From the NCBI RefSeq assembly GCF_058153355.1, contig NZ_CM177019.1: a DNA stretch of 64,000 nt. One strand, given 5' to 3'. Positions 6,071-58,074 of this stretch are shown here, one piece after another. The translations under genes were made by a program, and so were the position numbers. The notes below the pieces were generated by a model. It did not search any database, was not told where the DNA came from, and saw nothing but the letters and a program-made list of their open reading frames with translations. The stretch's first letter is position 1. Every line of letters begins with the position of its first letter.

Positions 6071-6733
<663 letters not shown>

Positions 6734-52706: not shown

Positions 52707-52780
52707 GCGGGCGTAGTTCAATGGTAGAACGAGAGCTTCCCAAGCTCTATACGAGGGTTCGATTCCCTTCGTCCGCTCCA
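52707..52780 (+). tRNA. glyU: tRNA-Gly (anticodon CCC)
   Basis: 74-nt sequence gcgggcgtagttcaatggtagaacgagagcttcccaagctctatacgagggttcgattcccttcgtccgctcca with cloverleaf arms and encoded CCA; the island starts immediately 3' of it. Confidence 0.92.
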
Positions 52781-52944: not shown

Positions 52945-54309
52945 ATGCTGCTTTCAGACCTTGCCATCAGGCGCGCGAAGCCGAAAGAAAAGGCTTATAC
53001 ACTCAATGACGGTAACGGGCTTTCGTTGCTCATTGAGCCGAACGGTTCGAAAGGGTGGCGACTGCGCTACAGGTTTGCAGGAAAGCCCAAAATGTTGTCG
53101 TTGGGTGTGTACCCTGATGTGTCTCTGTCTGATGCCAGGGCGGCAAGGGATGAGGCTAAAAGGCTTCTTGCTGGTGGTATAAATCCAAGTGAGGCCAGAA
53201 AAGCCCAAAAGCGAGAACAGGCGAGCAAATTTGGCAATACTTTTGAGGGTATCGCTCGCGAATGGTACGAAAAGCGGATCGACAGGTGGTCATCGTCATA
53301 CGCCGAGGAAATGATCGAGACGTTTGAAAAAGACGTTTTTCCGTACATTGGCGGTAGGCCGATCGCAGAAATTAAGCCGATGGAATTGCTGGCGGTTCTT
53401 TCCCGTCTTAATGACCGTGGTGCGACTGAAAAATTGCGTAAGGTTCGCCAGCGATGTGGCGAGGTGTTCCGGTACGCAATCATCACCGGACGCGCCGAAT
53501 ATAATCCAGCCCCTGACCTGGTGAGCGCATTTGCTCCACATAAAAAAGAGCATTACGCCTGTTTGAAGGCCGATGAACTGCCGGAATTTTTCCGCGTTTT
53601 TAATACGTACACCGGAAGCCAGATCGTCAAACTGGCAATGCGGCTATTAATTCTGACAGGTGTCAGACCCGGGGAATTACGGCAGGCAGAATGGCGGGAG
53701 ATCGATTTTGATAATCGTTTGTGGGAAGTGCCTAAAGAACGAATGAAGATGCGCCGTCCGCATTGCGTGCCATTACCAGAACAGGCGATAAAAATACTGG
53801 AGCAGTTAAAAAACATGACAGGTCAGTATCAGTTTATTTTCCCCGGTCGTATTCACCACAGTAAACCAATGAGTGAAATGGCAATGAATGTGCTCATTCG
53901 TCGTATTGGCTACGCCGGGCGCGTTACTGGTCATGGATTCCGGCACACCATGAGCACCATTTTGCATGAGCAGGGCTATAACACCGCGTGGATAGAGACA
54001 CAGCTTGCGCACGCCGATAAAAACTCAATTCGTGGCACATACAACCATGCGCAATATCTGGATGGCAGACGCGAAATGCTCCAGTGGTATGCCGACTATA
54101 TGGATTCGCTCGAGCATGGCGGAAATGTGGTGCATGGTGAGTTCGGAAAATGCGGGGGACTGGTTGAGTATACAGTAGTAGACTTTGAGCGACTAAAAAC
54201 GGCTGTGTCTAGGGTCGCTCCTGAAAACCCGTACACCTCTGCGGGCTGGCACAGCCACTATGGTAGAGGGCGCGAGGTGACGCGTGATCGATATTGCCGA
54301 ATTACTTAA
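52945..54309 (+). CDS. int: tyrosine-type site-specific integrase, P4-like (tRNA-associated)
   Basis: ORF 52906..54309; start assigned to ATG 52945 with GGAG 8 nt upstream (MLLSDLAIRRAKPKEKAYTLNDGNGLSLLIEPNGSKGWRLRYRF...); C-terminal catalytic residues (HGFRHTMST, Y in GTYNHAQY). Confidence 0.9.
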   Translation: MLLSDLAIRRAKPKEKAYTLNDGNGLSLLIEPNGSKGWRLRYRFAGKPKMLSLGVYPDVSLSDARAARDEAKRLLAGGINPSEARKAQKREQASKFGNTFEGIAREWYEKRIDRWSSSYAEEMIETFEKDVFPYIGGRPIAEIKPMELLAVLSRLNDRGATEKLRKVRQRCGEVFRYAIITGRAEYNPAPDLVSAFAPHKKEHYACLKADELPEFFRVFNTYTGSQIVKLAMRLLILTGVRPGELRQAEWREIDFDNRLWEVPKERMKMRRPHCVPLPEQAIKILEQLKNMTGQYQFIFPGRIHHSKPMSEMAMNVLIRRIGYAGRVTGHGFRHTMSTILHEQGYNTAWIETQLAHADKNSIRGTYNHAQYLDGRREMLQWYADYMDSLEHGGNVVHGEFGKCGGLVEYTVVDFERLKTAVSRVAPENPYTSAGWHSHYGRGREVTRDRYCRIT

Positions 54310-55287: not shown

Positions 55288-55485
55288 ATGTCAAATACGC
55301 TTATTCGTTTAACGGAAGTTCAGCGTAGAACTGGATATAGCAAGGCATGGATTTATCGCCTTATGGGGCAAGGTAAATTTCCTGCATCAGTTAAAATTGG
55401 CTCGCGAGCTATTGCTTTCGTTGAGAGTGAAATTGACGAGTGGATTAATCAGCGTATTGCTGAATCACGCGGAACAGCTACCTGA
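55288..55485 (+). CDS. alpA: AlpA-family phage/island transcriptional regulator (excisionase-like HTH)
   Basis: 65-aa ORF MSNTLIRLTEVQRRTGYSKAWIYRLMGQGKFPASVKIGSRAIAFVESEIDEWI..., strong SD gaggtaaa. Confidence 0.85.
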   Translation: MSNTLIRLTEVQRRTGYSKAWIYRLMGQGKFPASVKIGSRAIAFVESEIDEWINQRIAESRGTAT

Positions 55486-55563: not shown

Positions 55564-56364
55564 ATGAAATTTCCAAAAACGCCCATACAGGGGCAGGGCT
55601 TCGTTCGGCTTGAAAACCAGAATCTGCAAAATTTTGGCAAAATTATCCCGGTTATTTCCGGCGTTATTGGCGGGCGTGAAACCAATATTGTTAGCGCCAG
55701 AGCGTTGCATAAGGCGCTCGGGGTAGGCCGTGATTTCACAACCTGGATTAAAGTACGCATTGATGAGTACGGATTTAAAAAGGGCGTGGATTTTGAATTC
55801 GTAGAAAATTTGACCTCCCCCAATCCGGTGAGCGCAAAATCTCGCCAACGTATAGAGCACGACTACCTGAGCACTATCAACATGGCGAAAGAACTGGCGA
55901 TGGTCGAACGCACCGAACAGGGCCGCGCCGTTCGTCAGTATTTCATCAAATGCGAGGAGGAGCTACACAAGGTAGCGCCTGTGCGTTCCGCAGCGTTACG
56001 CCGGGAACTGAAAGCCCGTATCACTGTTGCCAGCTACTTTAAGCCAATGTGCGCCGCGCTGGAGGCGTACCGGGCAGAACTGGGTAAAAACACTCTACAG
56101 CACCACTACACCACGGAAGCTAATATGCTGGCGCGTATCGTGCTGGGTGGCATGACTGCAAAACAGTGGGCACTGGCGAACGGCATCACAAGCGAACCAC
56201 GCGACCACATGAGCACGTTGCAGCTTGAGCACCTTTCTTACCTTGAGCAGAGCAATATCACGCTGATTGAGTTAGGCCAGGACTACCACCAGCGGAAAGC
56301 TGAATTAATTCGTCTTTCGCAGCGCTGGTTAGCCCGTCGCATGGAGGAAAACAACCATGTGTAA
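55564..56364 (+). CDS. phage antirepressor-like protein (AntA/KilAC-type domains)
   Basis: 266-aa ORF with SD aggag; N-terminal region resembles AntA/Bro-type antirepressor domain; assignment by recall, moderate confidence. Confidence 0.6.
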   Translation: MKFPKTPIQGQGFVRLENQNLQNFGKIIPVISGVIGGRETNIVSARALHKALGVGRDFTTWIKVRIDEYGFKKGVDFEFVENLTSPNPVSAKSRQRIEHDYLSTINMAKELAMVERTEQGRAVRQYFIKCEEELHKVAPVRSAALRRELKARITVASYFKPMCAALEAYRAELGKNTLQHHYTTEANMLARIVLGGMTAKQWALANGITSEPRDHMSTLQLEHLSYLEQSNITLIELGQDYHQRKAELIRLSQRWLARRMEENNHV

Positions 56365-57018
56365 CGCTCTGACCGTTACAAAAAGAGAAAGCGCCCCGTT
56401 GCCGGAGCGCCTTTGTGAACGAATAGCCTACTGCGCCATATTGCTTACTGTCTACGAGGCAGATTATAGCGTTGTGGTCGCACAGAGTGAAGGCACTGAT
56501 CACCGTTACTACAGCACGCCAGAAATGCAGAATATTTTGCTGCAAAATGCCGCTGGCCACGCTGTCCGGAAAGCAAAAAATTTTGCTGGTGGCGCGACTG
56601 ATACGATTTTTTCTGGTCGCCAGGTGCTGATCAATCTGATGTCTGATTTCGTTCTGGATAAAACAAAGGCGACCGCAGAGGGCCACCAGTGGGAAAGCTA
56701 CACACTTGAACACATCGCCAACAATGCCAGATTTGCGGCTGGTGGGCAATGTGATCAGTGTGTTGGCTTGCTGGTGGGCTGTTCGTCTGGTTCAGTCCGT
56801 TGCCATGCATGGAGTGAACGCATTTTCCAGGAATACTCTTTGAGGTACTTCTCAAGAGCAAACGCACACGGGGCGAATCTCTCCGGTTCATGTTCGTTTA
56901 CCGCATTTTTGCGTTGTTTTTTCCTGGATGAGGATAATTTCTTTAATGATTTGTCAGTCATCGTATATACCTGTAACCCTGTGCGCCACAGTTCACTGCA
57001 CCACGGCGCTGATGGTGA

Positions 57019-57198
57019 TTACTCTGATTCTTTGGCCTTGCGGCGCTGGCGGCGTTTGATCTCACCTTCAAGTGCCGAAACGATAAATTGTCCAGTGCTT
57101 TCGCCTTCTTCCTTTAAACTTTCTACAGCGTCAGCTATTGCATGGGGTACTCGTGCCTCAAGTTTTTTTGATTTTCCATTAACTGCTTTCGTTGCCAT
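57019..57198 (-). CDS. ribbon-helix-helix (CopG/Arc-like) DNA-binding protein
   Basis: 59 aa MATKAVNGKSKKLEARVPHAIADAVESLKEEGESTGQFIVSALEGEIKRRQRRKAKESE; beta-strand then two helices typical of RHH; SD aaggga upstream; divergent from the promoter at 57260-57288. Confidence 0.6.
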   Translation of the reverse strand: MATKAVNGKSKKLEARVPHAIADAVESLKEEGESTGQFIVSALEGEIKRRQRRKAKESE

Positions 57199-57219
57199 AT
57201 CTGATTCCCTTGTTATTAG

Positions 57220-57299
57220 GTGGCTGACAGTATACACACAAGAAAATGGAAAAACACTATTGACGTGGCTGACACCTGTTACTAGTATAGTGGCTGACA
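57220..57299 (+). promoter_or_regulatory. near-consensus sigma70 promoter (TTGACG-17 bp-TAGTAT) overlapped by three direct repeats GTGGCTGACA
   Basis: -35 ttgacg 57260-57265, -10 tagtat 57283-57288; direct repeats at 57220-57229, 57265-57274 and 57290-57299. Confidence 0.6.
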
Positions 57300-57562
57300 C
57301 CTTTATTAAGGTAATCGATGAAAAGACAAAGCCCGCAGGCGCTACCAACACCAACGGGCTTCTAACCACCAACGATAGAAAGCGTATCGAGGTAGCTATG
57401 TTAAATCATACCACACACCCGCAAGGGCGGGACTCGCACAACCTGAATAAAGCGGGGGTAAAAAACCAGTTGATCGCCACTGCCAGCCAGGGCTATGATT
57501 TATCTGCACCAGCAAAATCTGGTGCCCGGATTGGCGTCCTGAAAATTCTGAAGGCGACATAT

Positions 57563-57584
57563 GACGCGCCGAGCGTCTTTTTTT
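57563..57584 (+). terminator. intrinsic terminator-like hairpin plus T-run inside the leader downstream of the promoter
   Basis: gacgcgccgagcgtc (5-bp stem) followed by ttttttt. Confidence 0.45.
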
Positions 57585-57787
57585 ATGTCGTAGGTCTGAC
57601 TCACCCATTTTTTGGGCGTTGGTGTATAATCCAGCGCCTTTGTCAATCAATGGTGGCTCAGGCGGGGGCTTCTTCGGAAGCGCCGGTATCCTTCAGAGCC
57701 GGTTACGCCAACCCTGTCTGGGCTACCACCAGCGAAATTGGCGTTTCCGGTGGTAGCGTAACCTGCTATCTGAAGGAGGCTGCCGAC

Positions 57788-57976
57788 ATGGCTACTACCC
57801 CTACCCTTGTACATTCTCAAACCGTCTTTCTCTGGCGCTTTATCGCCCTGAGCACAGCACAACCGCGCGTGATTCACATCGTGGCCACCAGCGAACAGGA
57901 AGCCCGCCAGCAATCTCCGGCTGGCTGCGTGATGGTATTCGCCGCCCGTATTCGTCAGGAGGTGGGCCATGATTAA
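57788..57976 (+). CDS. small hypothetical protein (62 aa) of the island early operon
   Basis: ATG 57788 preceded by SD gaaggagg; stop overlaps the next start (atgattaa). Confidence 0.55.
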   Translation: MATTPTLVHSQTVFLWRFIALSTAQPRVIHIVATSEQEARQQSPAGCVMVFAARIRQEVGHD

Positions 57977-58074
57977 TCTGTCACTTACCGACCTTAACCG
58001 TAAGCGTCTTATCAGGACCGTCTGGCAAATTCCCGATGCTTTGGACAAAGTATCCACCACTAAATTAATAGTGG

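Follow-up and report, generated by a model that had tools for sequence, protein, structure and literature searches.

The window studied here, a 64,000-nucleotide (nt) stretch of contig NZ_CM177019.1 (NCBI RefSeq assembly GCF_058153355.1), raises the question of what occupies the DNA between an antirepressor gene, antA, and the replication operon of a satellite-type island. An ATG at 56357, lying on the antA stop codon, opens a plus-strand frame that runs free of stops for 539 codons, through genes of the opposite strand and through RNA genes, before ending as a small Icd/Kil-like gene. A sequence-only reading of this DNA had proposed for the first 650 base pairs (bp) either a gene that had lost its stop or a gene of the minus strand. 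Having compared the frame with P4 and with homologous islands, we consider it probable that it is an enlarged P4 Eta-like frame, which would let a transcript from upstream read through an RNA immunity region. That it is an Eta homologue kept open by selection we hold with high confidence; towards an antitermination function, suggested by the analogy with P4, we lean somewhat less firmly.

A stop-free frame with an Eta-like end

The frame, its start and its two neighbours are arranged as follows.

56343-56359, plus strand: Shine-Dalgarno sequence, spacer and ATG of the Eta-like frame, from direct sequence reading.
56357-57976, plus strand: Eta-like stop-free frame of 539 codons, from the list of open reading frames (ORFs) and the homologous open frames.
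55564-56364, plus strand: upstream gene antA, an AntA/AntB-type antirepressor of the Bro network (Pfam AntA, 80.2 bits; homologues are named antA/AntB by PGAP).
57969-58000, plus strand: beginning of the following ORF (MINLSLTDLN...), its ATG overlapping the stop of the Icd-like gene as ATGATTAA; an insertion of the IS66 family interrupts this ORF at 58001.

Direct reading gives GGAGG at 56343-56347, a 9-nt spacer and the ATG at 56357-56359, which overlaps the antA stop (TAA, 56362-56364) as ATGTGTAA; this is the start that the sequence-only reading had described. From here the frame crosses, in order, the minus-strand genes orf68 and RHH, the GTGGCTGACA repeats, an isrK element and a C4 RNA, and it ends as an ORF of 62 amino acids (aa). 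The remaining two plus-strand frames of 56357-57976 hold 29 and 33 stops, and base composition gives a probability of 1.7e-11 for 539 open codons. The ORF list (56357..57976) thus confirms the extent and the end that had been noted for the frame. Its downstream part had also been called low-complexity; this is inaccurate, as that part is the in-frame translation of the promoter, the leader and the RNA genes.

The homology that names the frame lies in this downstream part. Its last 195 codons match P4 Eta (199 aa) in blastp with 39% identity over 171 aa (E 1e-26), and aa 345-538 of the long frame fall within two PHROGs families, phrog_29966 and phrog_6928. For the first ~340 codons P4 has no counterpart.

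Openness and phase in homologous islands

Homologous loci were gathered by an AntA scan of one genome per species, by scans of IMG/VR with AntA and with the RHH protein, and from three further E. coli loci. The antA-to-icd set holds 58 distinct intervals of 39 lengths, from Escherichia, Serratia, Xenorhabdus, Proteus, Photorhabdus and uncultured IMG/VR contigs; the RHH set holds 104 distinct loci with an antisense RHH gene.

An ATG overlaps or abuts the antA stop in all 58 intervals (as ATGNNTAA in 48, ATGA in 7 and TAATG in 3), each time with a purine-rich motif upstream, so that a junction which had seemed to resemble translational coupling proves to be kept in every distinct interval. The antA-coupled ORF is at least 150 codons long in 56 of the 58 (189-619 codons); it ends exactly at the Icd-like stop in 48 and beyond that stop in 6, which makes 54/58 with an open frame. 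Per interval, the eta frame holds a mean of 2.0 stops, against 18.0 and 22.8 in the remaining frames. In L001, an E. coli relative whose DNA is 87% identical, the antA stop again bears the ATG, and the 419-codon frame leads to the same C-terminus although the isrK/C4 stretch is missing. Lengths among the relatives include 419, 420 and 510-598 codons and reach 765, and the N-terminal parts are unrelated between genera. Five loci that are without the minus-strand module (L004, L005, L007, L008 and L011) have the same antA-coupled frame; the simplest of the relatives, L007 and L011, have frames of 195 and 189 codons, compared with 197-199 for P4 Eta.

The RHH set gives a similar picture. In 91/104 loci the frame crosses the entire minus-strand module and reaches the Icd stop without interruption, and all 13 closed loci are shifted in phase. 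Measured from the RHH start to the Icd stop, 84/96 sequences share one phase, as do 23 of the 33 distinct lengths (binomial P 2e-5). At its two ends, the frame overlaps the stop of an upstream ORF in 84 loci, and the start of a downstream ORF overlaps the Icd stop in 101. Within the aligned stretch of 56357-56754 the indels are of 3 and 6 nt. Stop-creating variants were not seen where ~4-5 would be expected per non-coding segment (P 0.006-0.015 per segment, in alignments of loci with an open frame). The loci are kin to one another, and even so the number of in-phase length variants seems hard to explain without selection.

A conserved full-length protein of 539 aa in homologous islands had been named beforehand as the finding that would overturn the sequence-only reading. 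What the relatives keep is the openness of the frame; the protein sequence is not conserved.

Some loci show unusual forms of the frame. Two IMG/VR loci carry a pair of antisense RHH modules in tandem and a first Icd-like start that is truncated, and a single stop-free frame crosses all of these, with 765 codons in L065 (1616-3913) and 653 in L074 (1616-3577); it seems that whole immunity modules were piled up there with the frame left intact. In one Xenorhabdus griffiniae locus (L009, ~6150-6248), the antA-coupled frame lacks an Icd-like end and finishes in a long (TG)n microsatellite, read as CVCVCV....

The RNA immunity region and selection on the encoded amino acids

The 3' part of the frame holds the following elements.

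57470-57499, plus strand: promoter-like TTGATC-18-TATGAT, 7 nt before isrK; a consensus match and candidate constitutive internal promoter, the analogue of P4 PLE.
57506-57583, plus strand: isrK-like RNA element, analogue of the seqA / a1b1 target (Rfam RF01394, 68.8 bits, gathering 50).
57563-57577, plus strand: intrinsic terminator within the isrK element.
57646-57733, plus strand: C4 / CI-type antisense immunity RNA (Rfam RF01695, 79.9 bits, gathering 45).
57727-57753, plus strand: second C4-target-like copy, CACCAGCGAAATTGGCGTTTCCGGTGG, resembling by eye the 5' part of isrK and lying just upstream of the Icd-like ribosome-binding site.
57788-57976, plus strand: nested 62-aa Icd/Kil-like ORF with its own GGAGG 8 nt upstream (NCBIfam phage_ICD_like, NF033153, 69.3 bits).

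The CACCAGCGAAATTGGCGTTTCCGGTGG copy would be the analogue of P4 seqC or of P1 a2/b2.

To what extent is the amino acid sequence itself under selection? Variable sites were tallied by codon position (position 1/2/3), over 22 distinct sequences for 56357-56754 and 9 distinct sequences for the regions downstream.

56357-56754: 42/43/40.
Promoter and leader, 57199-57505: 52/55/52.
isrK: 17/14/14.
C4: 16/16/17.
Icd-like 62-aa ORF: 21/18/32.

By these counts, protein-like evolution is confined, within the long frame, to its final 62-aa Icd/Kil-like ORF. The ratio of nonsynonymous to synonymous polymorphism (pN/pS) in 56357-56752 comes to 0.80 for the eta frame; the remaining five frames give 0.60-1.03, and antA, the control, 0.11 at a similar pS. 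The earlier judgement that a conventional 539-aa protein is implausible therefore stands, amino-acid-level constraint being absent outside the last 62 codons.

These data bear on the possibility that a conventional gene of ~130-180 aa begins at ATG 56357, has lost its stop in this copy, and is followed by DNA that is open by accident. Such a gene would fit the good Shine-Dalgarno sequence, the start overlapping the antA stop, a run of 135 first residues that is not low-complexity, and the few database proteins of 106-236 aa that begin with the same sequence. The shorter database proteins, however, are frameshift variants or partial calls; the homologues have no common stop position, 48/58 running to the Icd stop, so the comparison of islands gave no consistent earlier stop of the kind that the sequence-only reading had envisaged. 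Codon periodicity is absent from 56357-56754, and pN/pS there is as unconstrained in the eta frame as in the others. PGAP annotates no gene over this stretch in E. coli genomes. For the first 135 residues, Pfam, NCBIfam and PHROGs gave no family, and the 31 protein matches are all from E. coli, of uneven length and in many cases partial; the substitution pattern, in an alignment that is shallow over these codons, also speaks against a folded domain. A conserved domain in the first 135 codons was rejected on these grounds (E. coli-only uneven matches, no family match), as was a conventional protein gene for 56357-56754 (no third-position excess, pN/pS 0.80, no family), and we regard the loss of a stop as very improbable.

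The downstream part calls for a separate argument, as it matches a protein family. Pfam PF10554, Phage_ASH, scores 120.9 bits (cut-off 26, E 4e-35) on aa 381-487, that is, on 57497-57817. The matched stretch is the translated isrK and C4 RNA genes and lacks codon periodicity; the match probably reflects conservation of the RNAs, read in an open frame.

This family match, together with the PHROGs families on aa 345-538, could also be taken to mean that the frame encodes a functional fusion protein of the Ash or Bro-network kind with an Icd-like C-terminus, and that openness was selected for this product and not for the act of translation. In favour of a product, some islands have a BRO-N N-terminus in frame. 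In one (L094, 1832-3232), a BRO-N/AntA-like N-terminus is joined in frame to the Eta-like frame; in another (L020, 2925-3502), PGAP calls a BRO-N gene 'frameshifted' where the Eta-like frame takes over, and from the two it follows that both fused versions and versions with a stop/start-overlap junction exist. P4 eta, too, is treated as a Bro-network gene in PMC10111431. Against a product stands the even variation over codon positions outside the 62-aa Icd-like part, the Phage_ASH-matched part included. A single product also agrees poorly with N-terminal parts that differ from genus to genus in frames of 189 to 765 codons, and large stretches of the sequence are dictated by antisense genes, terminators and promoters. 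We judge a fusion protein unlikely.

Terminators and a divergent operon on the minus strand

Much of 56357-57018, and the DNA just beyond it, is used by the opposite strand.

56378-56413, minus strand: intrinsic terminator t2, with an 11-bp stem (56413..56388) and a T tract to 56378; the 'KSAPLPER' nucleotide block.
56658-56687, minus strand: intrinsic terminator t1 of the RHH-orf68 operon, with a 7-bp stem (56687..56668) and a T tract; the 'DKTKAT' block.
56755-56961, minus strand: orf68, a small basic protein, second gene of the divergent operon (phrog_21027, E 2.3e-28).
57019-57198, minus strand: small DNA-binding protein of the YlcI/YnfO family (RHH-like), 59 aa (NCBIfam NF041551, 64.4 bits; phrog_949).
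57220-57299, unstranded: three exact GTGGCTGACA repeats, at 57220, 57265 and 57290, flanking a promoter-like TTGACG-17-TAGTAT at 57260-57288 (plus strand).

Both terminators fold far better as minus-strand RNA: t2 at -20.3 kcal/mol (z -4.3) against -12.6 (z -1.7) for the plus strand, and t1 at -12.3 against -6.7 kcal/mol. The t2 block is found in 66/129 distinct loci, and one variant is altered on both arms with the pairing kept. The t1 block lies ~70 nt past the orf68 stop, and in relatives its distance from the module is constant at 71 or 116 nt; within the segment, it is this block that hundreds of E. coli genomes have in common.

Of the two minus-strand genes, orf68 keeps its ATG start and an unbroken frame in 37 distinct variants with the common core ERFAPCAF-LE-FLKEY, its variable sites (31/33/44) favour the third codon position, and its homologues are annotated by PGAP, in E. 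coli as well. The minus-strand gene that the sequence-only reading had offered as one of two choices is therefore real; the choice itself fails, as both strands are used. The RHH protein starts at an inner ATG, 57198, within a longer minus-strand ORF (57019..57372), and its gene has a pN/pS of 0.36 in its own frame against 0.51 in the eta frame. It is presumed to repress the adjacent plus-strand promoter, and the GTGGCTGACA repeats, whose three exact copies all lie in one 80-bp stretch while ten further matches in the window each have one mismatch, are presumed operators.

Could the plus-strand frame then be a shadow of these two genes, open over the rest by chance? Both are genuine genes whose third codon positions are also those of the eta frame, and synonymous recoding leaves the plus frame open with a probability of 0.38 for RHH and 0.69 for orf68. 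Since such antisense stretches are cheap to keep open, significance has to come from the non-coding parts and from the comparison of homologues. The recoding account, however, is adequate for these two genes only, and they cover 387 of 1,620 nt. The frame is also open over the terminator region of ~400 nt, the intergenic spacer, the ~300 nt of promoter and leader, and two RNA genes; the composition-based probability given above is far too low for chance, and openness and mod-3 phase are kept across 33-39 length variants. In addition, the five relatives that have no minus-strand module show the same antA-coupled frame. A mere shadow ORF thus has hardly any probability left in our view.

Several further features of this region were noted. 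Here orf68 reaches 68 aa since the stop that relatives have after ...EPD or ...KEQE (58-66 aa) is absent, and its 3' end (56755-56790) runs through ...EQPTSKPTH. A minus-strand promoter-like site, TTCACT-17-TATAAT (10/12 matches, 56491..56463), is followed by t2; together they could yield a ~75-nt transcript that is antisense to the long frame at codons 8-33. In some relatives (L131, L132 and L123) unrelated sequence replaces 56425-56495. On the plus strand, in the RHH-antisense region, a weak terminator-like hairpin is followed by seven T's (57143-57170); if it is a terminator, ribosomes on the long frame would be expected to suppress it.

Other candidates in the segment were set aside. A minus-strand TTG ORF of 163 aa (56258-56749) was rejected: its length falls to 100 aa in L001, it overlaps antA, and periodicity is absent from every frame. 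An inverted copy of the isrK/C4 target, suspected by eye at 56725-56748, was dropped, having no Rfam support and being better explained by t1 and its surroundings; a permissive Rfam scan of 56300-57500 gave only noise (E >= 0.88).

Island context and state of this copy

The window holds a satellite-type island at tRNA-Gly(CCC), in the order int, alpA, antA, immunity region, DUF4222, primase.

52707-52780: tRNA-Gly(CCC).
54202-54269: int-alpA RNA, at the 3' end of the integrase gene (Rfam RF02996, 45.5 bits, gathering 35.8).
55288-55485, plus strand: alpA, a helix-turn-helix regulator of the AlpA/Vis family (Pfam Phage_AlpA, 69.4 bits).

The ORF of a P4-type integrase lies between the tRNA gene and alpA, which is the first gene of the upstream transcription unit, a unit that is presumably helper-inducible; DUF4222 and a D5_N primase lie downstream of the immunity region. 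With its tRNA-Gly(CCC) site, P4-type integrase, AlpA, DUF4222 and D5_N primase, the last of these truncated by an insertion sequence, the island is a candidate phage-inducible chromosomal island (PICI) or P4-like satellite; the window ends before any packaging and late genes. The adjoining chromosomal DNA matches E. coli xdhA/actS with 98.6% identity. The int-alpA RNA is also matched in several related loci (L003, L004 and L007).

This copy is probably defective. An IS66-family element (58001-60470; three ORFs, transposase 58867-60438) is bounded by an 8-bp duplication, CCTTAACC, at 57993-58000 and 60471-60478. It splits the first ORF after the Icd-like gene after 10 codons, so that the early/replication operon is interrupted. 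The D5_N primase ORF (61149-62189, 346 aa) is about half of its L001 homologue (707 aa) and is followed by an IS110-family transposase (62248-63423); 61149-63423 looks like a second insertion.

Proposed mechanism

We propose that translation of the frame would begin by coupling on the antA stop, span all DNA up to the replication operon, and end as the nested Icd/Kil-like gene. In this lineage two additions have enlarged the frame, ~400 nt with the two minus-strand terminators and the divergent repressor module (YlcI/YnfO RHH and orf68) with its operators and promoters, and it has nonetheless stayed stop-free and in phase. By analogy with P4, transcripts from the internal promoter would be untranslated upstream of icd and would terminate early under control of the C4 RNA, giving immunity. 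Helper-induced transcripts from the alpA promoter would instead carry the antA-coupled start, and ribosomes would translate the whole stretch; they would mask the C4 targets and the entry sites for Rho, and transcription would reach the replication genes. Translation of the frame may perhaps also interfere with the divergent repressor operon.

Several points weigh against this proposal. Two of its steps, translation from ATG 56357 on alpA/antA transcripts and the protection that this would give against C4- and Rho-dependent termination, we infer from the arrangement and from P4. The surveyed loci are mutually related, so counts such as 91/104 are of non-independent events, and the alignments behind the stop-avoidance P values were built from open-frame loci only. 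In some 12% of loci the frame is closed or out of phase; openness is thus not obligatory, unless these islands are decaying. The recoding probabilities given above mean that the antisense genes would often leave the frame open by themselves. The promoter-like sites are consensus matches, no more numerous than expected from shuffling, and with two insertion sequences downstream of the frame this copy may be inactive.

The frame may also be translated for another role, either as a general protection from Rho polarity along an extended, gene-poor region or as a convergent transcription and translation that shuts off RHH-orf68 after alpA induction. This would agree with the unbroken series of start/stop overlaps that links antA to the replication genes, and with the head-on course through a complete divergent operon with two terminators; E. 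coli relatives such as L001 and the CI5 island, L019, keep the frame open without isrK and C4. Such roles are not separable from the immunity mechanism by sequence data. The P4 precedent nevertheless ties eta translation to the immunity terminator, and in this window the C4 targets lie inside the frame; we therefore rate a separate role as rather unlikely, though less so than a fusion protein.

More tentatively, the frames of 189-765 codons might be selected for absence of stops and for phase only, as a track for ribosomes whose antisense course through the repressor operon would serve at once to escape C4 and Rho, to silence RHH by collision and to deliver ribosomes to the replication operon. 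We regard this wider role as possible but doubtful. If true, it would amount to a translation-driven genetic switch and to a clean natural ORF under selection only for openness.

For the Eta-like frame as we read it, openness and phase over 30-40 length variants with neutral amino acids are the signature expected if the act of translation is selected. This reading also explains a recurrent annotation problem, the 'Icd-like', 'Ash family' and 'frameshifted BRO-N' calls of wildly varied length that overlap genes on the opposite strand.

Comparison with known systems

The closest parallel is P4 eta. Its start codons (MMM, three candidates) lie on the vis stop, GCATGATGATG, in the same form of junction as ATGTGTAA, and it contains isrK-like and C4 (CI) Rfam matches in the same order as the island frame. 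The C-terminus of P4 Eta, the Kil region, scores 73.3 bits on NF033153, against 69.3 for the 62-aa ORF of the island, and both are nested with a ribosome-binding site of their own. The P4 frame starts upstream of an internal promoter; the island frame would do likewise if one of the promoter-like sites at 57260-57288 and 57470-57499 is active. Forti et al. 1999 are reported to have found that P4 eta starts upstream of the constitutive PLE, is translated only from the upstream late promoter, ends as kil, and by being translated prevents immunity-specific termination. There are also clear differences. The island frame has 539 codons, compared with 197-199 in P4, and is coupled to antA, whereas P4 eta is coupled to vis, an AlpA/Vis homologue; it alone runs antisense through an operon of RHH and orf68, two terminators and an operator/promoter region, and no delta/Ogr-type late promoter is evident in the island.

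A second parallel is the immI locus of P1 and P7 (c4 - icd - ant). There, a C4 antisense RNA with upstream and downstream targets controls the small icd gene, whose translation is coupled to genes downstream. The island shares the C4 RNA and an Icd-like gene, but its antA lies upstream of the RNA region and not downstream of icd, and its icd stop is coupled to a small, unrelated ORF from the replication operon. A long frame that enters this region from upstream is not known in P1.

In Salmonella Gifsy-1 (isrK - orf45 - anrP; PMC4825925), an RNA of the isrK family likewise heads a transcript that is translationally inactive unless remodelled. There, however, it is a short IsrK RNA, acting in trans, that switches on translation of the long mRNA, and a long upstream-coupled overlapping frame is not described in the available part of that paper.

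Islands of the same type and gene order are represented by the Eta-like Bro-network genes of Gram-negative and helper-embedded PICIs (Mageeney et al. 2023, PMC10111431) and by EcCIMP1-type islands (AlpA, antirepressor, Ash, primase; PMC11773190). Homologues of CI and seqA are noted in PICI Bro genes in the former, and the PICI Bro-network genes have the same C4 and isrK Rfam matches inside an ORF of the Ash/Bro zone. The eta/kil principle and its presence in PICIs are already published. The accessible text of both papers does not describe openness without amino-acid constraint, the span over an antisense repressor operon, or phase kept across dozens of lengths; the enlarged form with its antisense repressor operon, the quantitative evidence for openness and phase, and the consequence for Phage_ASH were not found described in those parts of the cited literature that were available. 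One relative of the island (L020) sits inside a phage portal gene, like helper-embedded PICIs.

In Gram-negative PICIs, alpA is induced by the helper and activates the island cycle, and the existence of a repressor has been described as unclear (PMC6092414). According to the summary in PMC10111431, translation of P4 eta prevents termination. If the P4 eta mechanism holds here, the long frame would provide a route by which helper-induced transcription from alpA reaches the replication genes of a PICI, past both an RNA immunity region and a divergent repressor.

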